DNA of 61,883 nucleotides, filler included. It is 5 parts of 5 records of this genome, joined end to end, with 100 filler letters (N's around TTAATTAATTAA, not from the genome) between each part and the next. Parts side by side here need not be neighbours in the genome. Positions count along the whole stretch, not along the records: positions 51,104 to 56,479 come from SRR2962707_3029; 4 more parts are not named here. The stretch is one strand, 5' to 3'. The notes under the pieces were generated by a model. It saw only the letters and a program-made list of their open reading frames with translations, was not told the DNA's origin and ran no database searches. Of this stretch, positions 7,859 through 59,251 are shown piece by piece. Position 1 is the first letter of the stretch. Each line of letters opens with the position of its first letter. The translations under genes were made by a program, and so were the position numbers.

Positions 7859-7958
7859 NNNNNNNNNNNNNNNNNNNNNNNNNNNNNNNNNNNNNNNNNN
7901 NNTTAATTAATTAANNNNNNNNNNNNNNNNNNNNNNNNNNNNNNNNNNNNNNNNNNNN
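7859..7958. other. Artificial contig-joining spacer
   Basis: 44 N + TTAATTAATTAA (stops in all six frames) + 44 N; identical structure occurs four times. Confidence 0.97.
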
Positions 7959-10577: not shown

Positions 10578-13500
10578 TCAGACCTCCGCCTGAGCTGCAC
10601 GAAAGAGCGCTAACCACTCGTCCCATCTCATTTGCTGGGGTTGAGCGTCAACGTGAGCCTCGTTTCCTCCAGTTGGATCGTCAACGACCAAGTGGACTCG
10701 GACGTGTGTGTGATCAACAGCCAGGTCCAAAAGCGTGCGACATGCTTCTTCCACAAATATGCCATAATTTTCGCTGCGATGGGCAATCTGGTGCCGCACA
10801 ACCGAATCCAAAACATCCAGGATCGCTGCCACCCGAGCGCGACTAAAATTGTCGTGGCTGACGACAAGCAGTTCCCTAAATATGGCAAGGTACCCCACAA
10901 CCATGTCGGGCGACTGTGGATGCATCGGCAGCCTTGACGTGCAGTGCTCGCGCAAAGCGCTCAGCACCAAATGAAAACTATCACCCTCGGCCTCGTGATC
11001 CACGACCGGATTTTCTGTGAAAGTTGACGAGTGCTGGTAGCAACACAAACGAGCAACCAATTTCGCAGTGTTTGTGGCAGCCAGCTGGATTGCCTGCTGC
11101 AAAGTGCGGTGCCGAGTAAAGACGGTGCAAACCCGTTTCAGCACAGCACCGCGCGTTTGACTCGATCGGCGTTCACTTTTCCAAATGCCGCCCATTTCGT
11201 GCTGTGTACAAAGCTTAACAACATCTGCATCAACCAGGAAATGGCAAGGAACATGAGTTCGATCCGATGCCCAAGGAAACACAAAAACGCTAAAGCATTG
11301 CGAAGCACAAGAACAAAGGGCGATGCATACCGCTGATAATCAAGAGTACTGTCAATGAAGGCGGCACTTCGTGAACTGCCAAAGGGTGGCCAGAATGTTC
11401 GTCGAATTCAACGCGCTCGTGACGGGCCGCGAAGTAGTTGACAAGCGTCTCCAGCATGCCAGACGTGAGTAGGTACCTAACTGCACGGGGCTCCGTGGAG
11501 CAAAGCGAGACGATTCGGCGCCTATTGCAACACGTGAGAACGAAGCAAACAACAACCATAGCTAAGAAACGACAGTCGCCAAGAACGCAGCAGCATCCAG
11601 CTGGGCACCGCGACACGTACAAAAGCTGAAAGAACTGTTCTGCTTGGTGGGGAAACTCGTCACCCACAACAGGGAGTAGAGACACCAGGAACGAAATGAC
11701 CCGACTTAAAGTAAAGAGCGTGATGTTACGGTCGCTGGTGGAACTACCTCCAGCGTTGGTGCTGGCATTTATACCGATTGCAGTTTGGCTGGTGTTTGTT
11801 TGGAAACTAGAGGCAGAAGTGAGGCTTGCGAAGCTGGCGTTGGCACTACCTCCCCCAGCAGGACCGTTTTTGAAGGAACCATTTGAACCAGTCAACGACG
11901 CCATGGATGACATGCTGCCAAACCCGACGCTTCCCGAACTTGGAACGTTGCGATGCCTGCTGCGCTCGCGCTCACGTTGCGCACTTCTCTGTTGTTGACG
12001 CCGTGCCTCCCGCCGCTTGCCAGCTTTAGAAAGCACGGAGCGCACACAAAAGTACACCAATGTGGCAAATTCCTCTCGAATAACTTTGTACGGGCAAGTC
12101 AAAAGGTGCAGACGAGCGTATCTGCACAAAAATTGGCGCAGCAGGAGAGTAAACGAAAGTACGCAAAGAAAGCAGCAACAAGTGTCGCACAAAAGAAAAT
12201 GAACGAAAAATAGCAGCACAGAATTTCACAATGTGCAGCTAGACGTACTGATGGTGGCTCGCTTGGTCAATCAAAGCACTGATGAACCACTGTGCTGCTG
12301 CATCACCACTTGTGGCGAAAACCTTCATCAAGCCATCGTTCCATCGCCGAATTCTGGTGCGGAATCGCGCACTGTCGACGCCACGCCACAATTTTCCAAT
12401 TGGACTGACGATTGGCAAGACGGGCTTTGCGCTGCCGTTGGCTGGTTGGACATCGTCACCACATACCACATCGGACCGTCGGACCGTCCAAACGATCGTG
12501 AGAATGGTGTGCGTTAGAATCTTTGTATTGCGTAGTTTCTCGGCCGGACTGAAGCCATGATGGAGCTGATTTTGACAGAGCAGCTCCCACAAAAAGTCTG
12601 AAAGGTTCGAGTCGAAAAGAGAGTATTCAAGAAACAGCTGCGAATGTTGTTGCCAAAATTGTTCGGCGAAGCGAGAAACCACATTCGAGGAAGCATCCTG
12701 CTCACGAACGGAGCTGAAGGGCTGGCCCTGCACGTTGGCCCGTTGAGCACTAATGGGCTCTGGTGACTCAGCAAGTTGCTCCGCTGGGTCATCGTCGCAG
12801 TCTATTGAGGACAGAGAAACATTGAGGTCTCCTCTTGGATGGCCATTGGTTGGTTCTGGAGACACAGAGCTTGCACGGGTGGTTGCCTTCATGCGATGCT
12901 TCGACGGTGTAACGGGCGTTTTCAATGCCTCGGTCAGGTCAAGAGGCTCTGCCAATGGTGGGGCAGGAAACGACTCTGGAAGCACTGATTGGTGAGACCG
13001 GGACAAACGTCGCAGGGGCGAACTGGAGGCGAGTGTGCTTGTCAAGTCACGTGACCTTTGACGCGTATGCGTTTGTGGCATACGCGGCTCCTTGACGGCC
13101 ACCACAGGTGGTAGTTTTTTGTCAAGTCGGCGGTACATCAAAATGTAGGCACTCTGTGAGTGTTCTTCGTTTGCAGACTGGTACGGGTGTTCACTCTGAA
13201 CATGGCGGCTTTGGGTAGACGTACGCACACCAAAAGCAAGCTCTGCAACTCGCTCTGCGGACACGTAGCTCACTTTATCGTCGTTGTACATCACCCACGT
13301 CGAGCCAGATCGCGCGGACTTTGCTGGAGCATTGTTCGGCCTCAGTGACTGTTGTAGCCGTTGTTCGCCGACAATAGTTTGCAATGGCGAGTTCGTATTG
13401 GTCGCGGTACCTGGATCCAACGACACGGTGGTCGGGACATGACTATCAGAGCTGCGACCGTGATGTTCCAATTTTATGAGCGTGAAGTAGTGCCCCTTTT

Positions 13501-16500
13501 TAAATGTTCCATCATGCACGATGATGCCTGCGAGCCCAAACTTTTGCTCCTCACACGGCAGTTGTTTAGGGCCTTGATGCTCGTTGGCTTGGCACAAGAC
13601 GTGTTGGTGAAACTGCGCGGGCCGCCCCAAATCATCCTCTTCCTGCACTGTTTGGCTAAGACCACTATAGCTTCGTCGATGCTTTGCAGTGCTATTCATG
13701 CGCTGGTCTGCAAAAGTACGTTCTCGCCCTCTGGGGGGATGAGATCCGTTCCACGAACCGGGGTGCCACGAAAAGTCGTCTGCGGAGTCGGTTCCGAATC
13801 CACTATTGCGCAAAGTTCGCAGCGACCCACGTCCATCCCCAGGTCCAAGACCACTACCACCCCCCATGCCTGCACTTGATGTCGATCCGGCCGAGCCGTT
13901 GCGGCGGTGAGCAGAAACTCGGCCACTGCTGCCATGCTGCTGGTGGGTTAGGCTCCTCCGTCGACTACGGCTGCGGCTTCGCCTGTGGTGGCTGCTGTCT
14001 CCACTGCCGAATACATCTGCTCCCGACCGGGCGCTCCGAGAGCGAGAGCGGCTGTGAGTCAAGGTCACCGGCGGCAAAGGAAAAGCACGCGTGGTAAACG
14101 GCGCAAAGTCGATCACGTCTGGAAAAGTGCAGCGGGCCGAAATCTTACGGTACGACATCGAACCCGGATCAAACTTGAATCGCTTCAGATGCAGCAGCAT
14201 GAAGTCACCAGGCAATTCATCGAGGACCGTCTGCCTTATTGCGCGAGACTTGTGTCGCGAGCCCTCAAACTGTACTTTATTTGGACCGTCAAGGACCTCA
14301 AATGAAACCATTGCTGCTAACGCAGAAAGTAGGTCTGAATGTCCTTCCACATCCACGCTTAACATTGAAAATGCCTCCACTTGGGACTGCATGTGGCGCC
14401 CACTTTGTGACCTGGTCGTATGCCGAAGTGTGCCGCCTACAGTCTGTGCAAGTGTTGGCACGTGTCCGTGTTTGGCCGCGCTTTCGGCATGGGGCTTCTC
14501 GGATTCATGTCGCTTGCCATTCAAAGAAAAACCATCGCTTGGTGGAGTGCTTTCGAAAAGACTGAAAACTTCAAGGCCAAATTCATGAACATCGCGTTGC
14601 TCAGCAGCAGAGAAAACGGGCGGGCAAACGGGCGGTACGACGGAAGCTTGGGCATTGCTGCTCGCGGCAGCGGCAGCGGCGCGGGCGACAAATGTGCTGG
14701 CTTCAAACGCTTCGTCGGCAGAACGCAACATCCGACCAACGAATTTCGTGTCCAACACGACCGACGGACACGCTTCCATGGACGCAAAAAGAATCTGCAA
14801 AATTTGTACTTTTTCGCGCAGCAAAATGGCTTGTGCTTCTCGCGTCCGGCGTCCCACGGAATGCCCACTGCCAGCATCCTGCTGCCCACTGCAAGCATCC
14901 TGCTCTTGCTCCACGTTAACACGGTGGGCTAAAATTGCCTCTCGCGCCGAGCCGCTGTGATACAGGAGCTGGACAAACGAGTTCAGATAGCAAGTGGAAC
15001 CCAAATTGGTCAACCCTACGCCTGGAGAATCAACAACGGCGTGGTTTAAGGCCAGACGTGCATCTCCAACGGCACATCTGCCAATGGACGCACACACACG
15101 AAGCTCGCGGTGCCATGCATCCGAGGCTGCTTCTCGAAAAAAACGCTGAAAATTTGCAACATGGCCCTCGAGAAAACTGAAAAATTGTTCCTGGATCAGC
15201 TTGCTTACGCTTGGATCAGCAAGATGCACTCCAGCAACCGACGTTTCATCCTGAGACGAACTTTTGACGAATGCCGCTGGGCGTTGTGAACCACCTTCCT
15301 GTCGGGTTTGCGTTGGCTCCAACTGTTTTGGGAGCGGGGTTGACAGAAGCAAAGCACGGAGCACACCAAAAGCAGCTCGTCGTGACAAGGGTGACTTGCA
15401 GCAAAACGCAGCGCTCTGCATCTGTTGCGCAATTTGATGAAGGGCTGTTGGTGAATCCCAGTCTGTGACAAGGAACTTGTCCTGCACAGCGCTGGTCATT
15501 GTGCTTTGCAGTAATTTCGACGGTCCAGCTGCAATCGGCGTGTCGTCATTCCTTTGACTTCCAGCATTGGTTGTGGCCACAACCGGTTTTGAAAAGTCAA
15601 ATAGTAGATTGTGCAGTAACGAGGAGCACAACTGACTTGCCATTCCATTTGGTGCATCGGGACACGAGTTTTGGGACTGGAGTGTTTGAGTGCATGGAAA
15701 GCTCGCTGTTGTTGCAACGGCGCTTTTGGAAGCAAATGTTGGTACATATGTGACAAGAAGCTCCAACACGCGAAGTGAACCCTTCAAGAAAAAGTCGTGG
15801 CGCGGTGGAGTCCAGACTGGCCGCAGTGTCTCAATTGATCGTGCACGGGAATGCACATATGCGACAGTTGATTCGAATACGTCCACCAAGAAAGTTTGAG
15901 CTGCACGGTCGAGCTCCTCAATTGAAATGTTTGCGTATGCATCTCCGACACGATTCCGCAAGCGTTCTTTTCCTTTGCTGTTTCGGGCGCCGAAACCACC
16001 AGCAGCACCGCCCCCGGCACCGGCGAAGTGCCCCCCGCGGCCAGGGCGTACGCCCGCTTTGGTGCTGTGCTTACAAAAGCTGAAGATGAGATTACAGTAC
16101 AACCAGAAGAAGTCGTTTGAGGGTGAGCACCAGAACAATTCTCGCCGGACAGACGACGTCTGAACAGGTGGAGCATTAGCGCTTTTATATCCTGCCTTCA
16201 CCTGGTCCGTATTCAACATCAATCCCTCACAATAAAAGCGATGCAATATGTCTAAGAGTACCCGACAGTCATAAGCGTTGCGGTCACAGTGACGGACGAG
16301 GAAGCGCGTCAATGTGGCACGAAGCTCCAAATTCACAAAATTGGCACAGTATCGAAACCCTCTGCGTGCATTCTGGTGGCGCTGGTGGTGCTGGGATTCG
16401 TCAACTTTGTCGTTTCTTCCAGCAGATGTCACACTCGCGGTTGGTGCTGATGCAGCTGCGCGAACTCGGTCCCAGTCAACGTCATCAGGGGCGGTCAAGT

Positions 16501-19500
16501 CGCGCACATCGCTTGATGCGTATCCACGGGTCTCGTGGTCGGGAGATCCAAGAAAGATTTCCCGAAGCCATCGTACCACTCGCGAATACGAGCTCATGAA
16601 ACAGCGCAGCTCGTTCAGCTCCGAGTCAACAAAGCCGGTAAGAATTCGCATACCGTACTTCACAACCAAAGTCTTGTCAATGACCGTTAATGGTTGACGC
16701 TCAGCACTTGTTGGATGAGGCCCATTGTCCGAGCTGTTGGGAGGACAATCACTTTGAAAGTCAGTGCATTGCTGGCCATGGATGGGATCTTGCTGCCATT
16801 TGTTGTGATCAGCACTCAAGAAAACCGACAAAATTGAATCCAGAATGGTGTGGCTGAACTTTACGACCGTTGCCCGGTCGAGTTGGTCAACAAAAGCACC
16901 GCGGAGCTTCTCGTCACCGTAGCTTTGGACTCCTCGACGAGACCAAATGTACTTCGGGTCCAGGCAGAGCATGGAGTCGAACAACTTAAAAATCATACCT
17001 AAGCAACGCGTTGCGAGCGCATAGTCATGCTCACTCATGGATTGCTCGGTGGGTGAATCTTCGCCATTGGCACCCAAAAACTTGCGCTGTTGTTTCGCCC
17101 ATTGACAACGAAGCACCATTGCCATCAAATATTCCAGACCGCCCAAGTGTGCGAAACTGTAACACCACGCCGTTACTTGTTTGGCCGGCGCGGCTGAATC
17201 AGACAGAATGCCATCGACGAGTTGGAGAGCATATAGCAGCTTGCAACAATTGTGAGGACAGAACAAGTTTTGCCACGCGACACGGAATCGCGGTTTGGCG
17301 GCCTCACTCCTTTTGTTTCCCATAGAGGCGGAATGATTGCTGCTGTCAGCACTGAGGTTGAAAGGCATCAAAGTCGAATTTTTGTTCGCCACACGACGAA
17401 TGTACATGATTTCATTAAGCAAAGCTGGGCTGACAGGTAGGAGCTGCAGAATTTCCCACACTTCCGAAGTGACGGTATTAAGCGAGGTTATATCCATCAA
17501 AGAGTGCAGTTCGTCATAGTCGACCAGCTCCAAAATCCGTGAGACGGAATACTGCTCGTTGTCATTGGGTGTTGGCTCATCATCCATTTGGGCAGACTCA
17601 GCCAGTTTGAAGTTGAAATAAGAGTGCTCCAGTAGGCTCGGCTCGCAAAACTTTGCTGCCAAGCCCTCCTCGAAGCAATGGCCAGTACCTGACAATCGAC
17701 TTGGAATAGAGGTTGCGGAGCGAATTCCATTTTCGGACTTTCGGCTTGATTCCCAGGGTGCATGTTTCGTCCCCACCGTGCTGGCGTCGGCACTTAGAAG
17801 CACGCGTTCAACGCGAATAGAATCAATGCAGTGTTCAGCAGGAGATTCTGTGATCACAGGTGACTTCGCAAGCTTATGCGTATTGAGCCCCGGCTCAGGG
17901 CTACCAAACCATAGGTATACTTGGTTGCCGATTGCGCGAGCGCTGTCTTGTGTTGTAGCGGCTTGTAACTTGCTTTCTTCCGATGATTTGAAAGAGCGAC
18001 CCACAATTTGTGACAAAGGGGTCGTGAGAGCGAGTGTCTTGGAGACTGAAATCGGTTCAAGAGTGCCGTTTGCAAGTGCGTGAACCTGTACGTGACCGTC
18101 AAGTGCTGCCGTGAAACGCTCAACACTTGCTGGGGCGCAGTGACCACCTCGTATGTCGGAGTCAAGAAGAACAGCTTGTTGAAGAGCCTTGGCCAACGAC
18201 GAAGACGCATGTAAATAGAAATTCGTCACGTGATTTCCATCACTCATCGATATGCCGCTTTTCGCAGATTTGCCGTCACTTTCGCTGTTCTTAAGGTTGC
18301 GCGGTGCCGTGGACTGGTGTTGAGGGGCGCTAATAACCGTTCCCGTTGTTGAGACGCGCCTTGGCCTTGTGTTGCCAGCGGCAGTTTCGAGTGCGCCCCC
18401 AGCGGTGTAGCGATTCCCATGCGACATATCAGCCGTCTCCACAGAGAGAGCAGACATCTTCTTGAGTGTCGTCTCAAACAAACCAGCTTCAACAACCGCA
18501 ATAACTTTGACATGTTCCACTTGGACGGTTGTCCATTGTTGCAAGAATCTGCGGAACAAGCGCAATGAGCGTTCGAGCTGCAGTCTGCCAAATCTGTGCT
18601 CGTCCAGCGTGTCCACGCTTGTCGATGGAGAGGGATTCCTCGGGGCCAGAGGAGGGTCAGAAACAATTTTTTTGCCTTCCACATTCGGAACGCGCCTGAA
18701 CTCTGAGACTGGTGCGTCTTCGAACTTGCACTCTGGTGCTCGCAGTGGGCGCGGGCCAACAGCATTGGAAGAGTGGCGGCGGGTAGGAGCCGATTGTGGC
18801 GCCAAAACACTGCTCAATGATGGCCCTTGCTGCGCTTGTGGTGCTGCTGCAAACAAGACGCCGACATCGTCAAGGTTCACTGGATCGTCGCCACCGTCGT
18901 CCATTTCCGACTTCGCTTCCGACTCGGCTGAGCTGGTGGACCTTGCTTCAACATCGAGGTTCAATAGCTCAGTCGTATCGCTACTCCCGCAGGACTTGTG
19001 AGCCGGCCACACGTCCCGTGAAGTACTGCCCAAATGTTGCGATTTGGCTGAGTGCGCTTGCAGGGACAACCCTTGTTTATACTGTGCCGCACGCGTTGTA
19101 ATTGCTTTCCAGACGCGATGCACGAAATTGTGCTGTATTTCGTCGCGCTTGGGTTTTGGCACGCGACTGTCGAGATTCACAACAAGGTCTGCGAGAATGA
19201 GAGCGCAGGTAGCCTCGACGCCCGCGTCGCTTGGCGGCAGTTTCAGGTACAGATCCTCCAGTCCGTGAATGGCCTCAACTTCGATCATTAGTCGGCGCAA
19301 TTGCTGACGATGACGAGCACACAGCTCGGCTGTCAAGGGCTCGTGGTCTAATTCATCTGCAACGGCAGCCCTGAAGTTGGTTTTGACTTGGTCAGCACCA
19401 CGAGCATGAGATTTCACAGCTTTCGGTGATGCAAACATATCCCACAGCTTCTTGTTTTTTTTGGACCGTGGTGTTGCAGTGACTGTGGCGTTCCGCGGGG

Positions 19501-22500
19501 TGACAGTCTGGGCTAAGGTATCTAAAAGCGAAGTTCTGCGCTGCGCGTCTGAGGAAATTTCTTGCCGTTGTTCGTCGCCACGATTTTCCGCGGAAAGGTT
19601 GGTGGAAATGAACGCGATGGTCCGCAGTGTTACGTTGACAGACAAAAAGAATTGCAGGAACACTGACGCCAACGCCGAACCTGCAAAGTGGCTGGTGCGG
19701 GCTATCAAATGAGAAAGCTTGTGCAATACGTAGCGTTGCACATCTACGACAAGAAACGGTTTTTGTACGGAAAATTGCAAAGGTGACCAGTGACAGCGCG
19801 GGCTGCTGACGTCACGGCCATCGCGACGGATCCCTTCAAAAAGCGAGAACACGAGCGGTTGCGCAAGAGCTTCGCGTGCAGCACGTCCAACAGGCGACGC
19901 TGCGGATGATGGCACCGCGGAGGAGGACACATTCATTCCTTGTGCTTTTAGTCCAACATGGTGCGAAGTAAATTCCCCCGGGCAGGTCGCCGCCACCAAA
20001 TACATCTTGAAGGTCGATGGATGCGCAGCTTCACCCGCAGCCGGAGAGCTGACATTCGTTTCGCCCGTGACTGGCAAACGCTGATCTAAGTGACAAAAAA
20101 ATGACTCTGGGTTCAACACATTTGCCGCTATGCTGGGCAGCGAATGAAGTGAAGCAAGACCTCCAAGCCAATGGAACACTTCTGCTTGCACACTAGGTGC
20201 AAATACGTCACACACAATGCACTCCCACACATGTGCCACCCGTTCGCCTGTGAGTGAGGGCATCACTGCAGAGTTCAACATCGATATCGCGGGCGTCGGC
20301 TTAGCACCAGCTGTTCCCACTGAGAGACCGAGAGGGCCAATCGATGCCATCCGGCTGGTGCTGCGGGCAAGGGGGAGGGGTGTTCGGGCGAGCAACAAGC
20401 ATTGAGAGAAGAACATTAACCGAGAGCGCACATGCATGAGGACGTTGAATTGCCGACCAACCAACACCTCATCGCCGCACAGGGGTTCAACCAACGAGCG
20501 ACCCTGAAGCCCACCAATGGGAATGCCAGTCGTGGAGGATGTCGATCCTGCCGGGAGCATGCCGCTCACGAGCTCCACACCGCCAGACTTGGTCTGCAAC
20601 CGCAACGAGGCCTCTTTTTTTAGAGCGTGAAAGCTACCAAGCAGAGTCTGCACGAGCCCATCGTATCCGTCAACTGCGCGAAGAATCGCTTCGTGTGAGT
20701 GAGTTGGAGTTGGTTGCGGCAGGTATTGCGCGGAGTTGGTTTCCGAGGCACCTCCAGCGGCGACACGCGGGAACGTTGAGTGCAGGACCATCGAAAGCAG
20801 AATGATGGATTGCACCACTGAGCAATTGTCTTTTAAGCGCCCGACACAAATCGAAGCTAAACGAAATTTCACGCAGCTGACATCAAGAATGCCTGCGTCT
20901 GCGAAGGCCACCACGCTGCAAATAGCATCAAGGCCCTGCATGACGAGGGAATTGGGCAGTCGGTGTCCTGTCGGTTCGTGGTCCTCCATTCGATGAAAGA
21001 TCATTAACGCGAGACGTTCAACGAGAAGAGCCTGGGGTGGATGTTTGGCATGCCGCTTACTGCGGCCATGCCGCGTTGCCGCAGATGCTTGAGCATACGC
21101 GGCTTTGTATGACTCGCTGAGCGACATATTTGCAGCATCGCTGCGGTCATCAGGGCCAAACGGATCGGGGTACTGAGTCTGGATTTGCGCGTGACGGTCA
21201 ACTAAAACTAGGGACTTGCCGAAATTCAACAAAAAGCGCAATAGCTCGAGGTCCCACGCATTGGATGGAAGTTCCTCAACAAGATCGAGAATAGTGTCGT
21301 ACAACACACGAGGCAGCACAGTCGGCGAGCTTCGTAAAAACGTTGAGGCTAATGCGCGGGCGTGCGAACCGGTGGCGCCAAGCAAGCTGCGATCTGATAC
21401 CCCGAGCGCGGTATGTAGCAGCATGTCATATAGACCACGCACAACCAGTGCAATATCTTCGACTGCTCCCGATGAGTTCCCGGGGGCCGGAGCGGTCACA
21501 TCGACCGCTCCGGTGGTGTCGTGGTCGCTGTCACAGCTACTTCGGTCCAGGTCATCGGCAGGAATGGTCGATGTTGCACTCATAGAAGCTGCCAATGACT
21601 GCACTGCTTCCCACAAAAAGCGAAGGTGGGTTTTGACAACGCCAAAATAATCACTGTGAGTTTCTCCAGAACTGGATGCATGAGGGCTGTCGGCCACACC
21701 GTAAGAGTCTTCGTCATCATTGCTTGTGGTCGAACGTTTGCCACGGCTGCCACTTTGGCTGCTGCTACGATCCGTGTGCGAGCTGCCCGTGCTTGTAGCT
21801 CCGTCGGTAAAAGCACTGCTACTGCTACTGCTGCCGCTGTGCCTGCGATGGCGATGCCTCTTGCTCTTGCGGCGCCGTAGCTGATGCGCCATTTTACATT
21901 GGACAATGTAGGACGAGCAGTAGAAATAAAGGTGCACGAGTGCACGCGAGCTATTCAAAATTTCGGCAAAGAGAATGCCAGTGCCACGAGTCACCATAGA
22001 CAAGTCAAAAAGCTTGTCTATAATGCCAGCTTGCTGCATCCAGCGTACGAAGGTACTAATCGCATGTGCGCGGGTCATTGTTGCTGTTCCAATTGCAGGG
22101 AGAGGCACGTTTGAGCCACTTGATGAAGATGACGTTGGTGTGGCTGCATCCCAACCGGGAAATTCGCCTCCGATGTCGTAAAGGCTGCCGACATTACGAA
22201 TGCGTTCACAGAAGTAATGGTAAGCGCTCTCAAGGCCAATTTTTCGCATCTCCAGATTGCGGGCTTCCATCAGCAGTGAATAGAACTGCAGCGCGATGGA
22301 GTCCCTCCATATTTGCTGGCTTGCTTCAGTACTCGACGAAGTTTGCGTCGCTGACGGAGTAGCAAGACCAAGACCTCCATCGTGAGAGGTTGCGGTGATT
22401 TCCGGTTCCCATCGGCGTTTAATGCGGTCTGTATGGCACACAATGTCGACCAACTTTTCTACAATGCTTCGCGAACACAAGTCAATGGGACTGCTGCGAA

Positions 22501-24658
22501 TGTTCCTAAAAATCCAATCCACGCCTGCGTACAAGGCGCTCAGCAGCTTGAGTCTCTGGAACGAAGGGCAAATGAAGTCCACAACAGTGTCAACAACTTT
22601 AACAAGAAGTCGGAACTGCTCAAGATTCGAGTTGCTCAGCAAGACTGCCGACTGCATTGTCGCAGCATCGTCATGACTGAGGTGTCGTTTGTGTGACAAG
22701 GATGAAGCACGTCGGTGCCGCTGCGGCCGGCTGCCTAAACTAAAGGTCGCAGCCTTTCGCAGGGTCTGCCGCGAATGGGGCGTGTCGGCAGCTTCACTCC
22801 CTAGATATGCTCCTGCCCGGTTTGTGATGGCTCCGTCCAGAGCGTCTATCGATGATTGGCGAGCTTTCGATGAGCGCCAAAAACTGTGAAGAATGTCTAC
22901 GAGGGACTCGAATCCCCCACAGTCGATCAGAAAGTGACCAATTTTGTCAGCAGCAACGTCTAGGGCTCCTTTGTTCCAAAGCGCGTCACTCTTGTTGGCT
23001 TGGGCTTGCACAGCTGTCCGAGCCATCGCTTCCAAAGATGAGTACCCCAACTCGGCACGAAGGTACGCCGCAGACGTAAACAAAGGTGCATCAAAGCGAT
23101 CAAACGCAGCGCTCGGCGAGTAGTCCATGCGACTGGTGCGCATTGACAAAGCATCGTCGGAGCTTTCATAGCTGCGAACAGGAACTAAAACTACGTAGTC
23201 GCGAATGGAAAGATCCGGGTACCACTTCTTTTCACCGTCGTCATATTTGAGCAGGTGGCCACTGACAGCACGAGGTGTCCCGGTCTTGCCCGTTTTCGAT
23301 ACGAACTTGCGGACAATTGCTTTGAACCACTGTTTCTCACCAGGCCACCAAATTCTGATGCGCAAGCCTTTGTCTGATCGATTGAAAGCAAGCTTGCGGC
23401 GCGGGTCCGCGACGTACCACTTTGCGTGTCCAAGGGCCGAGCATTTGCGCCGAATAATATAGCACTTGACTTTCACGTCGCCCCCATCCGTGACAATTTT
23501 GCGCATGGAAGTGTCGCGATACGCATACGGAACCATGTCCTCTGTAACATCAATCCAGCGAGGTTCATCTACCGGAGCGCTCTCGGTGACCACTAAATGT
23601 CGGTGTGTGCGAGAGTCGTATGCCTTTATTGTAAGGAGCTCCTCAATCTGGAACCCATGACCTTGCAGCTCCTGCGTCTCAAAGTCAAACAGTGACTCGT
23701 CGTAAGTCACCTTTTTCTTCTTCAGTGTCTTGCTCACAACCTGCAGTACTTTGTCCACATCATTCGCGCTCATTTCTAGTTCCCGGTGCGGGGTTTTGAC
23801 GAACTTGTCTTTCAACCAGCACAGCCCGTGGAGCGAATCAAGAACAACCCATTTCTTTTCGCCATCAACGTAGTGAATCAAGTGTTTCCTTGTTGACGGG
23901 CTGTAGTCCACAATCATTCCACAGTACGCAAGCTCGGTAGACTCCCACGTGTGGCGAACACAACGCCCCACAAGGTCCATGCTCCGTTTTGTGAACGCCC
24001 TTAGCGAATGTTTGCGTCGCTGGACCTGTTTGCGAAGGCGAAGCGCATCGACAAACGCACCACGTACTTCGCCAAACACCGAGCCAGGAAGAAAAATTTC
24101 TGACACGCTTGTGTTAAGTCGCGCCGGACTTGTCGCCCTGGAGTCGCTGTCTAAAGTCGTGAAAGCCTGAGAAAACAGGCTGCAAAAACAATCCAGCAAG
24201 CCCACGTGACACCATGGCAAACTGACGGCTGTGAGCCGAACGCATTTGTAGAACACAAGGTTAATCCGCTGCAAAGTTTCCGACGAGCGGTCCACACTCT
24301 CAGCTGCAGCTCGCTTCAAAAAAGGCACAATCTGTGGCAGAAACCCGCGAATGAAGTCGCTGCTGAGCACTTCGTTAAGCTTCGCCTCGTCGAGGTCTGC
24401 TGGGAGTTTCGTTTGCCGTCGTGACCACTTTGTTGGCGGCTGCGAAGAGACAGGTTCATGGGTTTTTCCTAGCTGAAGCACATCAAAAATATTGTCCAGG
24501 CACTCGTTCGCCCAGTCCACCTGCTCGCGAAGTTCTTCGCTCGGCAAATAGCCCTGTATTTGGGAGTACTCACGCTCAGCGGCCGGGTCACTCGTTGCCT
24601 CGTTGCGCGAACTGCTTTGTTGTTCGTTGTCCAGAGGCGGGGAGGACGTCCGCGACAT
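10578..24658 (-). CDS. Giant ubiquitin-specific protease (peptidase C19), USP34/USP24/USP9X-like, ~4,582 aa, with N-terminal Tudor-like domains
   Basis: Exons 24658-12249, 12121-11621, 11521-11331, 11224-10578 (13,749 nt, in frame). Catalytic motifs: Cys box GLTNLGSTCYLNSFVQ (Cys 14990-14992), QRDVHEF, LHLKRFKFD, His box LAGIIVHDGTFKKGHY (~13490), WVMYNDDKV, SAYILMYRR. Family motifs: VWEILQLLP, KLLYALQLV, W.YSF..LGGL and post-catalytic LLTCPYKVIREEF. Confidence 0.9.
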
Positions 24659-24902
24659 AAGTGCCACCCGTGCTCAAAGAGCACACTTAGTAGTGCGTGC
24701 GCGTGTCACGGCATGCGAGCAAGTTAGGCGCACAGCCAAGCTCAGCAGCTCAGCCAGCTGCCGACGTCCGGCACAGCCGGTGCCGGGCTGCTTCAGTTAC
24801 GAAAACCGAGCCTCGCCACTCATTTTTTCTGGCACTGGCCAAACGAGGCGTCGGTTGGCCAGATTTTCTACTTCTTCTTTTTTTTTGTGTGAAAAGGCAA
24901 AA

Positions 24903-24926: not shown

Positions 24927-25026
24927 NNNNNNNNNNNNNNNNNNNNNNNNNNNNNNNNNNNNNNNNNNNNTTAATTAATTAANNNNNNNNNNNNNNNNNN
25001 NNNNNNNNNNNNNNNNNNNNNNNNNN
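24927..25026. other. Artificial contig-joining spacer
   Basis: 44N-TTAATTAATTAA-44N. Confidence 0.97.
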
Positions 25027-51003: not shown

Positions 51004-51103
51004 NNNNNNNNNNNNNNNNNNNNNNNNNNNNNNNNNNNNNNNNNNNNTTAATTAATTAANNNNNNNNNNNNNNNNNNNNNNNNNNNNNNNNNNNNNNNNN
51101 NNN
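51004..51103. other. Artificial contig-joining spacer
   Basis: 44N-TTAATTAATTAA-44N. Confidence 0.97.
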
Positions 51104-51150: not shown

Positions 51151-53668
51151 CAGGTAGCGACCAAACCTGAGCCTGAGGTCGAGCTTGAAGCTGAGCCAAA
51201 CACCGTTTTAGAATCGGAATCCACGCCGGTTACAGAATCCATAGCACATGCGCAGCAAGAACCTGAACTCAAACAGCAGCCGGAATTTACAGCAGATATA
51301 CATTCCGAATCGAGAATGGATCAAGAAGCAACAACGTATGCTGCCCAGGAGGGATATGGGCATCAGCAATGGAGTGCAGACGGCGTTGCCGAGGATGCGT
51401 ATGGTTGGGGAGACGAGGTTTACAGTGGGGAATATGAGTATTCGGCCGCTTGTGAATGGTGCCAGGATGTCGGTGACTTCAGTGCAATCTGCTATGCCTG
51501 CACCTACGGTCATTTAGAGTGCTTGAAGGCGCTGCTGGAACAGGGATACGATCCAGAAGTCGCAGATTCTCACGGGCGATCTCCAATGCACCTTGCGGCT
51601 TCTTATGGCCATGTCGCATGCGTCCAGGAGCTGGAGGAATTTGGTGCTAATCCTCTCGTACGTTTTGAAGCGTGATTTGAGATTCCGTTGTTGCAATTGG
51701 AGCTTGTTGGTCTTGTGTGTAGTGTTGCTGGCCTGAATTGTGGATGGTGATTTCCCAGGCTGTCGATTTCGACGGGCGAACGCCGTTGTTCTACGCATGC
51801 ACCACACACGAGTTCAACACAATTGCAGAGCTTGTGACTTTTGCCCCTGAATTGCTGGACATGGCCGATTCAAATGGGGATACACCATTGCATGTGTGCT
51901 GTGCAAACAACTTCATCGATTGCGCCAAGCTTTTACTGCAAACAGAAGCGGACCCTGACATCCCAAACTGCGACGGGCACACTCCCGCAAGCATTTGTAC
52001 CACTGCAGAAGGTTTAGAAGCATTGTTCGACAACGGTGCCAATCTTTTCTGCACGGACGCAAAGCAAAGATCACTCATGTTCAATGCGGCGGCCAACGGT
52101 GACATTGGTCGTGTTGCATTTCTCTTGGAGGTAGATGTTGAACAAATTATGCTGGATGCTGCAGATCTTCGTGGTGACTCTCCGCTTCACGCAGCATGTT
52201 GCAATGGTCGCCCCGAAGTCGTGGAGCTGTTGCTGTCATATGCTGCCCGTCCAGACATGAAAAACCAGGCATGTTTCACTAATTTGATTCTACTTGTTGA
52301 CAGCATTTGCCATGGGGCTAGTTCTGACCACTGACAACCGGGCATGGGTATGCTTTGCTGCACGTAGGCTGGGTACACCCCTTTGGACCTGGCAAAGCTC
52401 TGCAATAAAGCCAGATGCCAAGAAATTATGGAGGAGTATCTTGGCTTTTATAATCCCGTCACCACCGAGGCAGAAACTGCAAATGGATCTTGGGACCTCG
52501 CCACCGCGGCAACAGTTGCGAAAAATGTTGCTGCGGCCACGGGAAAATGGTCGCGAGTCCTCGACGAAGAGTCAGGGTTCGTTCCATGCCCGCTGTTGGA
52601 AGTACCAGCACACCCCAGTGCTACCTCCAGAATTGAGGTAGAATGCTGTGATGCGAGAAACGTGTATCGCTCGCTACCGTACTAAATTGGAAACTTGTCT
52701 TGGGGCTTGTGCATGTGCAGTTATTTTTATTGGGTCAACAGTGAGACTGGTGATTCTGAGTGGGAGCATGACGCTGATGGCAACTTAGTTTCGCAAGAAA
52801 GTGAACTTGCGGCAGCGCGGGCAGCAGCAGCGGAGGCGGACGCTGCAGCTGAGGCGGAAGAAGCAGCGGAAGCTGAGCGACAGCGCATTGAAGAGCAGAA
52901 CCGGCTTGATGCAATTGCCGAGGAAGAGTACGACCGTCAGCAACGTAAGCTCAGAGAACAGCAAAAACGTGAGAAGAAGGAGAGGAATCGGACGTTCCCA
53001 CGCAAAATGGTGAAAGACTACGAACTTCTTGCACGCCAATGGGTTGAATCATCCGCTTACCACATCGTCGAACACACGAAAGCAGTTCGAGGTGAAGATG
53101 ACGATGCCGCTTCCGAGCGCAACATCATGAAGGCACCGCGACAAAGCGGGAACCTCGTATGCAACATTTGCCGCAAAAATCTGGTCAAATGGGTTTTTTT
53201 GCCATGCCACCACGCTTGTTTGTGCAATGAGTGCACAAAAATGCTGAACATCACAGTGAAAGCAGAGGCAGAGGCAGTAGCTGGGCCAGTTGCAAACAAG
53301 GCGGGAATGGTGAGTTTGTTTCGTTTCTCGACGCTTGTCATGCGTTGCGTCACCGACCCATGGACAAGTTTTTGAGCGTCTTGGCGCGCGATTGACATTT
53401 TGCCGTGAATTGTGCTGACTAGGCATTTCGTGATCACAACGATAAACAAGGTGGTGATGGGGCAGGGGTCGAATCGAATTTGCAAGGTGGAGGGCGACGA
53501 AGTTCAAGTTCTAAGATGTACAGCAAGTGTCCACTTTGCCTGCACTCGATCTCAAAAATGGTGCCATTGAAAGGATTTGTTGCCGACGATTGGCTGAACG
53601 CAAGCAAACCTCCCGAATTACCAAAATCGTTTTCGTTCGCATTCAATCAAGTGGCCCAGTTTCTTTGA
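51104..53668 (+). CDS. 5'-truncated ankyrin-repeat / WW / coiled-coil / RING-HC protein (putative E3 ligase)
   Basis: Exons <51104-51657, 51759-52268, 52368-52576, 52721-53309, 53423-53668. Ankyrin motifs GRSPMHLAASYGHVACV, GRTPLFYAC, GDTPLHVCC, GDSPLHAACCNGRPEVVELLL. WW motif W-SRVLDEESG|YFYWVNSETGDSEW spans an intron. RING CNIC-x11-CHHACLCNEC...CPLC. Frame is open from the contig start through (PE)n. Confidence 0.85.
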
Positions 53669-53717
53669 GCCACAATGTGAAGTAAAACCAAGATAACGAA
53701 GTAAAAAGCTGGCAGGA

Positions 53718-55612
53718 TTAATTTGTGTCTATTTCAAAGTTCGTTTCATGTGACGACGGCCTCCCACGTTTAGCGGCAACTCTAGCGACGTTGGAAAGCT
53801 GTCTCTTGGAATTGGTGAGTGGGAGTAGAATTGGAGACAGTTCAGCTTTCTGTCGACGCGAATACACGGCATTGTATGGTTAACACGACTGCACAGATCC
53901 GAATTTGAAAACAGGGCAGCGCAGAGCATTACCGAGCCCGAAACCAACGACCGGTACTCACCGTGTAGTCTTCCTCATCTCCATCGTCGTACTGGACATG
54001 ATAGTACTTATTCCGACCAGCTCGCCACACCGTGACCTTCAAACGGCAGCAAACGTGATAAGCGACATACATGACCAATGGCCCGCAAAACGCACTGAAG
54101 GAAAGAAACAGACAACAAAAAGTGCCGACGGACCACTGTGCCTTCAAAATCACCAAAGCCAGGGAAATGTTTGCTCACCCTGCGACGCAGGAGAATGTCC
54201 TCTTTGCCACTGGTTGATTTTGAAGCTGAGGCGACCTTTTTTGCACGGCGTCTTTTCCGAGCGGACGATGACATTGGCGAGGTGGGTGCCGACTGTGCAC
54301 GAGCAGCATCGTCTCGTGCCCTGATCATTTTTGCAGGTGAAGCTTTGGACCGCGGTCGGGATGAGGCACTGCGTGGAGGGTGAATTTGGTGCTGCGTTGT
54401 GGCCTCTAACTCTGTGCGCACAGTTTCCGCCTCTTTCTCAGATGGCGGCGTGACAGTTGTCGGTTGTTGGGTTCCAGTGGGATTGGTGACGACGGCGTGG
54501 ATAAGTTCGATTGCTTTTTCTGCGGGTGAGGGGTGAGAATGGCTCGCAGGTGTTTTGTGGAGCGCAACCGGCTTCGCTGCAGGTTTCTGTGGCTCACCAT
54601 CGCGTTCTGCCCGCTTGAAGTACACCGGCAACATTGCAGCGGCAAAAACAAGCATCACGCCACCCAGTTGCTGCTCCGACGGTTGCTTTTCGACCAGCAC
54701 CATGGCCATAATCGAGACAAATCCAGCGCGCAAAGTGTTAAAAAGACTGTACACGACGGGCGATGTGCGGACCAAGAAAGCCTCTCCTGCAACGTCCATG
54801 CCATAGAGAGCAACAATGGCTAGTCCAACACCTCGGATTGGGAACGGCGGTGCTTCGGTGACCCCGTCGTGGCTGATGAATGTGTTCCAAATGTCAAATC
54901 CTTCAAAGTACGCGGCTGGCAACGCAAGCACTGCAGCGGCAGCGAACCGTGAGTAGGCGTATAGACTCTGTTTGTCAATGTCTCGCGACTTGAGCAATGT
55001 GGATCCGAAAATGGCTTTTATACTCCCGCAGAAGCCTGCAAGCACGCTGTAAAAAGTGCACAAGACAAGATCACTGCCCATCCACGTGCGCTCGCTGTGT
55101 GCAGTCTCATTGGGTGTCCCTTCAACAGCTGCGACGATTGCCGCGGAGTTGGCAATGGCGGTTCCAGCCAGGACGAGCCCCACACTCAACATTGACAGGG
55201 ACGAAACAAGCTCAATCGCAAGCACATGCGACACAACGGTGGTAAGCAGAATGCTGGCCATGGTTTTTGTTGGCAGCACGACGGAAATATCACCATGCTG
55301 CAAGGACAGGCGGTGGAAGATGTAAGTGCCAGCGATAAAAGCGCTGTAAGGCAGCATTTCCCGAAGTAAAGGAGCCCGCGTTCGAGCTGCTTGTTTCACG
55401 TTGGATGCTGCCGCCGACGCGAGTGGAGTGGGGATGCCTTGGACAAAGATGCTGAGCAGGCATAAGGTGAACGGGAAGTCGAACCGCTCTGACTCTGTGT
55501 CCTGAGCCGGTGTGCTATTCAGCAGTTTCTTCGTCTCAACATTGTTCAGCACGCTGAAGGCGTACCACCCAACAAGCGCCACAACGAGCACAGTTGTCGT
55601 CGACCGAGACAT
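53718..55612 (-). CDS. TPT/nucleotide-sugar-transporter (DMT superfamily) protein with C-terminal Tudor-like domain, ~561 aa
   Basis: Exons 55612-54134, 54036-53962, 53849-53718 (both introns phase 0, GT-AG). About 9-10 hydrophobic segments with TPT-like motifs WYAFSVLNNVETKKLL, FDFPFTL, SLQHGDIS, AYFEG, RTSPVVYSLFNTLR, QQLGGVMLV. Tail LLRRRVSKHFPGFGDFEGTV|VTVW...YYHVQYDDGDEEDYT|KAELSPIL. Confidence 0.83.
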
Positions 55613-56432
55613 GGTCGCCAGCACGAAAGCTTGGTTTTTGAAGGGGTTTCTTTCCCGCACGCGTTCAATAAGTCACTGGTCTCCCAGAAGATGAATGACA
55701 CACGAGAAACAGCAAAAAGAAAAAAGAATAAAAGAAACGAAAAGAAACGAACTCTATCCTTCGCTCTCTCACGCAAGCTGTTGAGTTTTTGAGGTTGTGA
55801 TTTTTGCGAGCGAGTCGGTGAGTTTGCACAGAGTTTGCGGTTGAGTCTGTTAGGTTGCGAGGAGTTTGCGAAGTGAGGAGTGAGGGGGAGGGAGTGAAGT
55901 GAACGCACAGAGCGAGGACCAGACTCCGCGCGCCACCCCACCAACTCTCGCACTCTTCACGCACTCACACCCACCCACCCGCCACCCACTCCCCGCTCAC
56001 TCACGTAGTCACCCACTCACATCACTCACTCCACTCACTTTGACTACTCATCACCAGAGGTGATGCTCCACTCACGCACCACAGACACTGTCTCACTTGA
56101 CCACTCTTTCTCACTCCCTCTGACCACTCACTCACTTACTTACTACTTACTTTACAAGTTCGTGTGAAGAATCTCCTCTTTGCAAAACCACAATTGACAA
56201 TTAATTCACAAGGGTTTTGAACCAGGCAAAAGCCTCCGCTTTTTAGGAGCGCGTTTCAGTGGATGGGGGGGGGGGGTGTGGCAACAGGTTCCAATATTGT
56301 AGTGGAACAAACTGAACGGACAGCATCAACGGCTGCGTGGAGAGCAGTACATGACATAATACAGTAGCGACAAAAGAGTGACAAAGTTGGCAACGACTCA
56401 GTCGTTGTTGGTCTCATGCTGCTGCTGTGTGG

Positions 56433-56479: not shown

Positions 56480-56579
56480 NNNNNNNNNNNNNNNNNNNNN
56501 NNNNNNNNNNNNNNNNNNNNNNNTTAATTAATTAANNNNNNNNNNNNNNNNNNNNNNNNNNNNNNNNNNNNNNNNNNNN
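56480..56579. other. Artificial contig-joining spacer
   Basis: 44N-TTAATTAATTAA-44N. Confidence 0.97.
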
Positions 56580-56910
56580 AGATTTAAATGCGTTGAATCA
56601 ATCCCAAATCTATTCCGCTCTTTGGCGCAGGTGGCAAGTGGCTCGTAAAAGTTCTCGTGTCGGAATCGACGTCTTTTTAAAACGCATGTGATTGGGCTGA
56701 ATTAGATGCTCTGGTCATCGTCGCCCCTTTCAAAGTTTTTACTTGCTCCTCATATTTATTTTGGAAGATTGGCGGGTTTTCTTGCGCAATTTGAAGTTGT
56801 TTTTTGTACTTTTGATTTTTTTGGCGAATTTCCTCGCTGCTCTGGGCAACTTTGCAGGGAGTGAAACCGAAATTTCTGATTCTGGCCCAAGCTGCACTGT
56901 GGAACATTTC

Positions 56911-59092
56911 ATGAAAATGAGGATCATTGTCAACTTGCTTGTAGTGCCAGTATTCGCGTTGTTGGTCGGATTTTCGGCATATGGCTCTAGCGCATTTGTT
57001 GTGAGTTCCACTCAATTCCCGTCGCAGGGTTTGTCGGTTGGCCTGTGGCCACTCCCCGCCACCGTCAAGGAAGGAACTGAGGACCCGATATTTGTCGATG
57101 CAGCTTCTTTTCGCTTTCAGTTGACGCCAGAATCTGAACTGACCCCGACGCTTTCCACTGTGATGGATCGATACGTTCGTTTGATTTTCATCCACGGTAC
57201 CAATACAAGCGTGCCTCTGGAGTGGCAACGAACGAGCAGTGTCCTGTCCTCGTGCACGTTGCGTGTGGCAAGCGCCAACACTACAGTTTGGGTCGGAATG
57301 GACGAAAGCTACACTTTGACGGTGTCAGCAACGAATGGATGTCACATTGAAGCTGTCACGTTTGTTGGAGCAATGTATGGCATGGAAACCCTTTCGCAAT
57401 TGGTGTTGTCCGATGCTGGCGCATTGACGAACAGCCAAGTGACGTATTTCATCCCGAACTCGCCCTGGGAAATCCAGGATGCTCCGCGCTTCCAATGGCG
57501 AGGACTCATGGTGGATACCGCTCGACACTTTCTGCCTGTAAACGCACTGTTGAGACAGCTTGATGGCATGGCTTTCAGCAAAATGAATGTTTTCCATTGG
57601 CACTTGTCTGACGCACAAAGCTTTCCGTTTGCCAGTGAAGTGCACCCGAATATTACCGTTGGGGCGTTCTCCGCCCGGGCTGTTTACCTTCCGACTGATA
57701 TCGCTGCTGTTGTGGAATACGCACGTCTCCGAGGAATCAACGTCGTAGTTGAGACAGACATGCCAGGGCACAGCTACGCAATGACCATGGCGTAAGTTCC
57801 ACAGTTTGTGGGAGCTCGTAATGTGGGTATCCACTGTTCGTTCTACTCAGAGTTGTGTTCCCAATTGTTTGCCTTGATAACCACAGGTATCCCCACTTCG
57901 GAGTGACTTGCCCTTTAATGGAACCTCTCGACACTGAATTTTGGCGAGGAGGACTCAATCCTGCCAATGAGGACGTATATGAATTCGTATTCTCTCTTCT
58001 TAATGAGTTGATTACACTTGTCCCAGGCCAATTTTTTCACCTCGGTGGGGATGAGATTCAGGCTGATTGCTGGCAAGGCGACGCGCGTATTGCCGAGTTC
58101 TTAAAGACGCACAATATGACGGTTACTGAGCTTTACCAACTTTTCTTAGGACGCACCATGAACGAAACGATTCGCCTCGGGCGTCGGCCAGTGACTTGGG
58201 ACTCCCTTTGGCTTTCGAATGCCACAATGCCAGAGAGTGCTGTCGTTCATGTGTGCGTGAGCAGGCTTGGATTGGATTTGCTTGATTCAAGAATCGGTTG
58301 TGTGCCGGTGAGCCGAAGATTTCGATCTGACTTTGCTGAGTGTCCCTCTTGCAGATATCCACATACTCACAACAATAACACCGTTGAGCAAGTTGTGAAA
58401 GATGGGCTTGATGCAGTAGTTTCCATATTTAACGGGGACTATCTTGCCCACCAGTACGTGCCTCGCTACCCCTTCTGCTAAAAGATGTTTGCTGAGCCCA
58501 CGGAATGGGAACCAAAACGGCTTGTTGTAGCGATCTAACACCAATGCTAAATGTGCCGTCCTAGGTATGGATGGGACTCGCTGTTTGTGGCTGAAATCAT
58601 GCCACCCAATCTCACCCCGTTGGAGGAGGAACACGTTCTCGGGGCTGAAGCATGCATGTGGGGCGAGACGATGGATGACTCAGCTATTGACACCCTGGTG
58701 TGGCCCGACACCGCTGCCGTTGCCGAGCGCTGCTGGAGTCGGCCTGGAAGTGTTGTGCCTCCGGGATCCACAGTTCCCGATGCCTACAATGTCTCACAAG
58801 CGTCGAATAGGATTGTTCCCCACCGTTGTCGGCTGTATCAGCGAGGCATTCGCTCCAAAGCAGTGGATGCGCGCGATACGTTCGGAAGGCGACGGTTGCA
58901 GGTAGGTGCTCAAGTGAAGGCTGCCGCGCTTCGATTTGAAAACGTTTTCTGCCGCTTTACATGTTGCTCGCCATGTGTGTTTGTGTGTGTTGCGTTTTGC
59001 TTCAACAGCTTCAGTGCGAAACCCTTTTACCGCGCGGGCCCATGGCTGTGTCTCTTGCGCCACTTTCAGCAACGTTCCCCGGAAACAATTGA
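56911..59092 (+). CDS. Beta-N-acetylhexosaminidase, glycoside hydrolase family 20 (secreted/lysosomal)
   Basis: Exons 56911-57791, 57887-58252, 58355-58453, 58565-58901, 59009-59092. Signal peptide, then LWPLP, DESYTL, IQDAPRFQWRGLMVDTARHF, KMNVFHWHLSDAQSFP, ETDMPGHS, catalytic FHLGGDE, LGAEACMWGE, WPDTAAVAERCWS, HRCRLYQRGI. Confidence 0.93.
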
Positions 59093-59251
59093 CGCGATAC
59101 CGGACTTGGTGCAATAAACAAGAAAAACGTAGCTCGTGGATCAAACTGAACTTATGTGTCTTTTATGGAAAGAGTACAACGACATGTAAATTCGAAGGTT
59201 ACACGAATTACTTCGTGAATTACATGTACAATAAAAAATCCACTGCCGAAA

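Follow-up and report, generated by a model that had tools for sequence, protein, structure and literature searches.

The locus lies on the minus strand at 55612..53718 of the window, the whole stretch of 61,883 nucleotides that was analysed (five parts from five records joined by filler), and holds a three-exon gene with a spliced product of 561 amino acids. The gene is real, expressed and spliced, and its host is a marine eukaryote. Transcript sequence was taken from run X1, one public run that holds 0.79 of the sampled words of the stretch and whose kind is guessed as RNA. The features of the gene, read in the direction of transcription, are the following.

55613..55700, minus strand, 5′ untranslated region, as far as the run X1 contig reaches (contig start 55700)
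54134..55612, minus strand, coding part of exon 1, residues 1-493, by translation; covered by the run X1 contig with 0 differences
54596..55612, minus strand, ten-helix TPT/DMT transporter domain, residues 1-339, from Pfam PF03151, AlphaFold and Foldseek
54179..54595, minus strand, basic, probably disordered linker, residues 340-478, mostly with pLDDT below 50
54329..54373, minus strand, S/R-rich patch RSASSRPRSKASPAK, residues 414-428, from the sequence
54236..54262, minus strand, NLS-like basic run ARKRRRAKK, residues 451-459, putative NLS by sequence pattern only
54134..54178, minus strand, putative first part of the Tudor-like domain, residues 479-493 (VSKHFPGFGDFEGTV), corresponding by ungapped count to PF21743 positions 1-15
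54037..54133, minus strand, intron 1, 97 nt, GT..AG, absent from the run X1 contig
53962..54036, minus strand, exon 2, residues 494-518, putative Tudor-like core of 25 amino acids reading VTVWRAGRNKYYHVQYDDGDEEDYT
53850..53961, minus strand, intron 2, 112 nt, GT..AG, absent from the run X1 contig
53718..53849, minus strand, exon 3, residues 519-561 (43 residues, in frame) and the TAA stop
53826-53849, minus strand, putative closing 8 residues of the 48-position Tudor-like profile, at the start of exon 3, by count
53754..53771, minus strand, AT-hook-like core KRGRPS, residues 545-550, by motif only

The exon structure follows from a single 1778-nt contig of run X1, which aligns to 55700..54131, 54033..53962 and 53849..53715 with 0 differing letters and leaves two gaps, of 97 and 112 nt, that are bounded by CT..AC on the plus strand. 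A shift of the cut by +3 places these gaps exactly at the junctions 54134/54036 and 53962/53849, and the two junctions proposed in the initial annotation are thus matched to the base. The same contig joins all three exons in frame, in agreement with the earlier claim that the Tudor-like stretch is complete only after splicing of two further exons. The depths in the intron bins equal the contribution of the spliced contig alone, by arithmetic on binned depths, and the region 55749-56000 has zero cover in run X1. With introns and upstream DNA uncovered, run X1 fits RNA, the kind that is recorded for it as a guess. Translation begins at the first ATG, at 55612, upstream of which an in-frame stop is found at 55673-55675, and the exon 1 protein begins MSRSTTTVLVV, contains both SSRPRSK and ARKRRRAKK, and terminates in RRVSKHFPGFGDFEGTV. 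A word-indexed protein search with exon 1 as the query returned only the unspliced ORF of the window itself (P0004, 550 aa), which runs into intron 1.

Residues 1-339 are a divergent but intact transporter of the TPT/DMT family, and the defining features of the family were found in them. The match to Pfam TPT (PF03151) has an E of 1.7e-12 and 47.8 bits, the cut-off being 30. An AlphaFold model, which comprises residues 1-493 only and was built on a 15-sequence alignment (mean pLDDT 69, pTM 0.63), displays ten confident helices within residues 3-339. Foldseek against the PDB gave 37 matches at E up to 0.001, with TM-scores (target) of 0.64-0.77. All those listed at this threshold are DMT-fold carriers, including the GDP-mannose transporter Vrg4, the triose-phosphate/phosphate translocator, SLC35B1, the CMP-sialic acid transporter (CST), PfCRT and LicB, and solved examples of the fold are Vrg4 (5oge), the red-algal TPT (5y78), SLC35B1 (9i20) and the CMP-sialic acid transporter (6oh3). 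Searched by sequence, the transporter profile gave 0 matches in the PDB at E up to 1. The polar and charged residues typical of the family (N23, N24, T27, K28, H100, R101 and K116) are retained in the 15-sequence alignment, K116 being invariant across all 15 sequences, and the arginine of NTLR in helix 9 (TM9) is R in 12, K in one and C in one of the 14 sequences covering it. In the TPT structure, basic residues conserved in helices 4 and 9 reportedly bind the phosphate group. As these residues are kept, the transporter part looks like a working carrier rather than a decayed anchor. The conservation of substrate-binding residues, which the initial annotation had put forward as a check, accordingly holds for the family-typical positions of the alignment, as distinct from a one-by-one mapping on the solved pockets.

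The first helix begins as early as residue 3, and the orthologue described below has its start at the same alignment position. An N-terminal presequence is thus absent, which argues against the plastid inner membranes, and a plastid-envelope translocator was rejected as a candidate on this ground. Ten helices would place the N and C ends on one side of the membrane. Both N-x-S/T sequons (residues 32 and 168) are situated in loops predicted to be lumenal, and K+R counts are 5 in the loops of the N-terminal side, 3 in those of the opposite side and 37 in the tail; sequons and charge distribution together point to a tail on the cytosolic or nucleoplasmic face. In nucleotide-sugar transporters the tail side faces the cytosol.

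The whole tail, residues 340-561, comprises 222 aa with a mass of 24.4 kDa and a pI of 10.1. Residues 340-476 have a pI of 10.8 and a GRAVY of -0.94, and the AlphaFold pLDDT is below 50 at residues 348-350, 352-360, 377-390, 405-472 and 484-493. The basic run ARKRRRAKK is found 111 residues after the last helix. Sequence, pI and low pLDDT all agree with the description first given of this part, a basic disordered linker of ~140 aa past the last TM helix that carries SSRPRSK and the NLS-like ARKRRRAKK.

A Tudor-like module of the PTM/DIR17 type had been proposed for the end of the protein, and a partial match of exon 2 alone to PF21743, the PTM/DIR17-like Tudor family, speaks for it. This match has an E of 1.3e-4 and 22.2 bits, under the family cut-off of 27.2, and spans profile positions 24-38, i.e. 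15 of 48. Three Pfam families are listed for exon 2, namely PF21743, Tudor_5 as the next Tudor family (E 0.031) and a peptidase propeptide. Extending the match by an ungapped count, which is distinct from a tool alignment, puts profile position 1 at V479 (VSKHF) and position 48 at L526, so that the domain would draw on all three exons. In an ESM Atlas feature search with exon 2 the top two named clusters carry PF21743, with a score of 0.78, and further clusters are Tudor-knot/Agenet, Spin/Ssty and Tudor_3, the scores as a whole being 0.75-0.78 and all of them to be taken as leads only. As a control, other stop-to-stop ORFs of the window were scanned, and 0 of 150 and 0 of 28 had any Tudor match with an E of 0.001 or less. 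Pfam had no match for the final 30 residues of exon 1 alone, residues 470-493 had no usable match in the ESM Atlas, and exon 2 had 0 matches in the PDB by sequence at E up to 10. In the relatives search, residues 41-81 of the stop-to-stop ORF around exon 2 gave no candidate sharing three words. On balance, a PTM/DIR17-type Tudor domain is the probable identity of the C-terminal module, with residues 479-526 assigned to it by count and the profile match confined to exon 2. PF21743 belongs to the SH3-like group, and SH3-like barrels can bind protein motifs too, according to the available part of PMC11836899.

Exon 3 also holds KRGRP, which was overlooked in the initial annotation. The chance expectation of RGRP is 0.007 per protein of like composition, and the KRGRPS core is followed by no basic residues. 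Even with the E threshold set at 10, exon 3 matched no Pfam family, which leaves the putative AT-hook with the motif as its basis. Judged from its sequence, the tail is a series of four nuclear-type elements in a sensible order, in which a long flexible linker leads to a strong basic run, then to the Tudor-like module and last to the AT-hook-like motif.

In sequence searches the protein stands far apart from others. When 1.84 billion representatives were searched exhaustively with HMMER, 10 proteins were returned at E up to 0.001 including the window's own unspliced ORF, two of them close relatives, P0005 (338 aa, 47% identity) and P0006 (42%, a fragment of 251 aa), and the other seven distant. 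TPT was the best Pfam family in 9/9 relatives, and 0/9 matched any Tudor family with an E of 0.01 or less. The closest cluster consists of marine sequences, and 6/6 members are 333-338 aa long and stop about 15 residues past helix 10. No homologue of the linker was found among the 1.84 billion representatives. A scan of metagenome contigs revealed one locus, L001, on a 12.1-kb seawater contig, with an ORF of 44% identity over query residues 1-343 and a stop directly after helix 10. No tail-like sequence was found in the 7.8 kb of L001 searched with the spliced protein. A convergent Ank-RING gene adjoins the transporter in L001 as it does in the window, with identities of 81% (Ank) and 61-65% (RING), and this shared neighbour makes L001 the positional orthologue. 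Measured from where the shared transporter part ends to where the last exon of the RING gene ends, the distance by arithmetic is about 366 nt in L001 as against about 916 nt in the window. The transporter gene, with 44-47% identity as against 61-81% for the neighbouring Ank-RING gene, is by this comparison fast-evolving.

Since both the L001 orthologue and the other relatives are tailless, the tail is, among the few relatives found, confined to the lineage of the window, and represents either a gain in this lineage or a loss in the relative. The statement that such a tail is unusual for TPT/NST transporters is therefore borne out by the nine relatives and by the syntenic orthologue. No fusion of a TPT-family transporter with a Tudor module is described in the titles or abstract starts listed by the literature searches, which were text searches as distinct from an architecture search. 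A neighbouring GH20 gene has its best identity, 48-53%, to transcriptome or metagenome proteins.

The reading tentatively preferred is that of an ER/nuclear-envelope transporter whose nuclear-type tail may deliver it to the inner nuclear membrane or keep it there, a serious possibility that stops short of being probable. The protein would insert into the ER with the tail on the cytosolic face, and ARKRRRAKK would act as a nuclear localisation signal at the far end of a long flexible linker. A tail of 24 kDa would be small enough for passage along the nuclear pore membrane, and the protein would in this way arrive at the inner nuclear membrane. Diffusion followed by retention through binding is another route to the inner membrane, which extralumenal domains of less than roughly 60 kDa can take. 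The putative Tudor-like module and the AT-hook would hold the protein there by binding chromatin and AT-rich DNA, making it a chromatin-to-envelope tether. With the pocket residues kept, the transporter would probably still be a carrier, and the solute moved across the inner nuclear membrane might be a phosphorylated sugar or one of nucleotide type. Such a logic would parallel those of LBR and Heh1/Heh2, assembled independently from other parts.

Published work on sorting has a bearing on this proposal. According to the available part of PMC4569319, an NLS and a disordered linker are sufficient for inner-membrane accumulation of yeast reporters, and the order TM-L-NLS works as well. A linker of 53 residues abolishes accumulation and one of 180 works, and in human cells a linker of 37 residues gives little enrichment compared to 180 residues (PMC4569319, same part). 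Polytopic membrane anchors, Sec61 and bacterial RibU among them, travel with such a signal, as described in the portion of PMC4695851 at hand. These TM-linker-NLS data (PMC4569319) make the inner-nuclear-membrane tether or transceptor suggested in the initial annotation more plausible, as something we still infer. The NLSs of Sun2, Lem2, LBR and Lap2beta gave no inner-membrane import in yeast in the same part of PMC4569319, and a basic run and a linker alone would accordingly not predict the destination. The preferred reading is further weakened by the tailless positional orthologue together with the lack of any tailed orthologue among the relatives found, and by the PF21743 score under the cut-off over 15 of 48 positions with no match for the exon 1 piece.

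A rival reading is an ordinary ER/Golgi-type carrier of the TPT family with a young, lineage-specific tail, which would serve in cytosolic regulation or partner binding, or have little function, the nuclear-looking motifs being incidental. It would suit a positional orthologue and 6/6 cluster members that stop right past the last helix, a tail with no detectable relatives, a fast-evolving gene, a Tudor match under the cut-off and an AT-hook with no profile behind it. The ability of SH3-like barrels to bind protein motifs also (PMC11836899, in the part available) speaks on the same side. However, a linker, a basic run, a Tudor-like module and RGRP in the right order are more than would be expected of a random extension, and the frame stays open across two precisely spliced in-phase introns. 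A carrier of this ordinary kind is conceivable and, on the present evidence, on the unlikely side.

Considerably less probable is a membrane-tethered nuclear factor. The transporter would then anchor the tail at the ER or another endomembrane until a signal, possibly substrate-dependent, causes a protease to cut the linker and release a fragment with NLS, Tudor and AT-hook to chromatin, as proposed for plant PTM. The envelope-to-nucleus role of PTM has been disputed. A long, exposed and disordered linker would be accessible to proteases, the NLS sits distally on the linker alongside the chromatin modules, and the Pfam family matching exon 2 bears the name of PTM. PTM is described as chloroplast-envelope-bound and as moving to the nucleus upon proteolytic cleavage in the available part of PMC10396365. 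Against such a factor, the linker has no known protease site and the fragment has no evident effector domain beyond its binding modules. The RNA displays one full-length spliced form only, which is uninformative on protein processing.

An artefact, in which the tail is not translated with the transporter (3′ untranslated sequence, read-through of two genes or an assembly chimera), is very improbable, for although the spliced form derives from one contig of one run of guessed kind, from which neither the ends nor the isoform ratios nor the expression level of transcripts can be read, all 1778 nt of that contig agree with the window and three exons are joined in frame, the chance of the 222 codons past the last helix staying open is about 2e-5, introns and upstream region are uncovered as RNA should leave them, and exon 2 matches a protein family.

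The inner-nuclear-membrane transporter thus stands as the preferred reading. In its widest form, a protist would have independently evolved an LBR-like device, in which a DMT carrier in the inner nuclear membrane, tied to chromatin via a Tudor-like reader and an AT-hook, would couple the passage of a phosphorylated metabolite between perinuclear lumen and nucleoplasm to chromatin position. The fusion would be recent, because the syntenic orthologue is tailless. This wider proposal is regarded as doubtful. If true, it would be a simple example, open to test, of the LBR design arising convergently, and one of the rare indications that solutes are transported through the inner nuclear membrane, with the tailless syntenic relative as a natural control. 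To our knowledge few inner-nuclear-membrane proteins have been described from lineages other than animals, fungi and plants, and how chromatin is attached to the envelope in protists without lamins is largely an open question. Should the tail be a cytosolic add-on, what is left of the finding would be a fast-evolving transporter with an unusual fused domain.

Compared with known systems, the protein resembles the TPT/nucleotide-sugar family (PF03151) in its ten-helix fold, in a Pfam score over the cut-off and in the conserved polar and charged residues, and differs from it in a very divergent sequence and in the 222-aa nuclear-type C-terminal tail that is absent in 9/9 relatives. From PTM it differs in that the membrane part is a complete transporter, whereas PTM is a large protein with C-terminal transmembrane helices. 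With the same Arabidopsis protein (PTM, DDP1) it shares, by a partial match, the family of the Tudor-like module, combined with transmembrane segments in one protein, as far as the available part of PMC10396365 describes it. PTM is there a PHD-type factor with transmembrane domains in the DDT-PHD group (PMC10396365), whereas neither PHD nor DDT is found here.

The likeness to LBR is one of design only. On the partial account of LBR at hand, both combine a polytopic membrane protein of metabolic type with a Tudor-type module, putative here, and a basic S/R region facing chromatin. LBR has a sterol-reductase (ERG4/ERG24) membrane domain, whereas the membrane domain is TPT/DMT here by Pfam and by fold, and the tail is C-terminal here and N-terminal in LBR. 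None of the three Pfam families that exon 2 matched is the Tudor family of LBR, and the S/R patch has few SR/RS pairs. Membership in the LBR family was rejected for the missing sterol reductase domain, the opposite order of parts and the unmatched LBR Tudor family. The lamin-B-receptor-like logic of the initial annotation consequently does not hold as kinship, a C-terminally tailed DMT transporter being something other than a sterol reductase, and is retained as an analogy. Heh1/Heh2 differ in having the LEM and MSC domains that are absent here, and the Heh2 signal is an NLS of high affinity and IBB-like character. With Heh1/Heh2 and Pom121 the protein shares an NLS-like run set off from the membrane by a long disordered linker, and its 111 residues, mostly with pLDDT below 50, compare with the roughly 100 or more that a linker of the Heh1/Heh2 type requires according to the available part of PMC4569319.

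The neighbour of the transporter gene is convergent with it and encodes ankyrin repeats and a RING finger (Ank-RING):

51723-53668, plus strand: ankyrin-repeat and RING-finger gene

The transporter stop codon lies about 50 nt from the end of the last Ank-RING exon, and the transcript contigs of this convergent pair end at 53711 (Ank-RING) and 53715 (transporter), so the 3′ ends of the two genes must abut or overlap. In L001, a 12.1-kb seawater metagenome contig, the orthologue of the transporter is likewise followed by an Ank-RING gene. Identity between the window and L001 is 61-81% for the Ank-RING gene and only 44-47% for the transporter (window 54584-55612 against its positional orthologue at L001:4001-5005), and the transporter is evolving much faster than the adjacent gene.

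Directly upstream of the start of the transporter transcript contig is an A/T-rich low-complexity stretch (55714-55747), where the depth of run contigs aligned to the window spikes to 389 from many short unrelated contigs. This stretch may have shortened the assembled 5′ end of the transcript.

Elsewhere in the window three giant stop-to-stop open reading frames were found:

12242-24673, minus strand: stop-free frame of 4144 codons
25071-29105, minus strand: stop-free frame of 1345 codons
29109-49790, minus strand: stop-free frame of 6894 codons

They run nearly head to tail along window coordinates, the first in a different part from the other two. Residues 3219-3847 of the 4144-codon frame form a ubiquitin hydrolase (UCH) domain, and the 1345- and 6894-codon frames gave only weak matches (PKD-like, DUF7743 and Ig-like). 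Together the three frames may represent one or two giant genes of more than 12,000 codons in total.

At the joins between parts (7859-7958, 24927-25026, 51004-51103 and 56480-56579) the N's form four pairs of 44-base runs with 12 bases between pair members, a regular spacing that looks like masking and not like assembly gaps.

Two further plus-strand regions were recognised:

1610-4796, plus strand: MOV10-like helicase pieces (a beta-barrel domain match and two AAA_12 pieces)
56701-59114, plus strand: GH20 beta-hexosaminidase gene in at least three coding pieces

The beta-barrel match of the helicase region scores under the cut-off. The closest database proteins to the beta-hexosaminidase are unnamed and just 48-53% identical, indicating that the source organism is poorly sampled.
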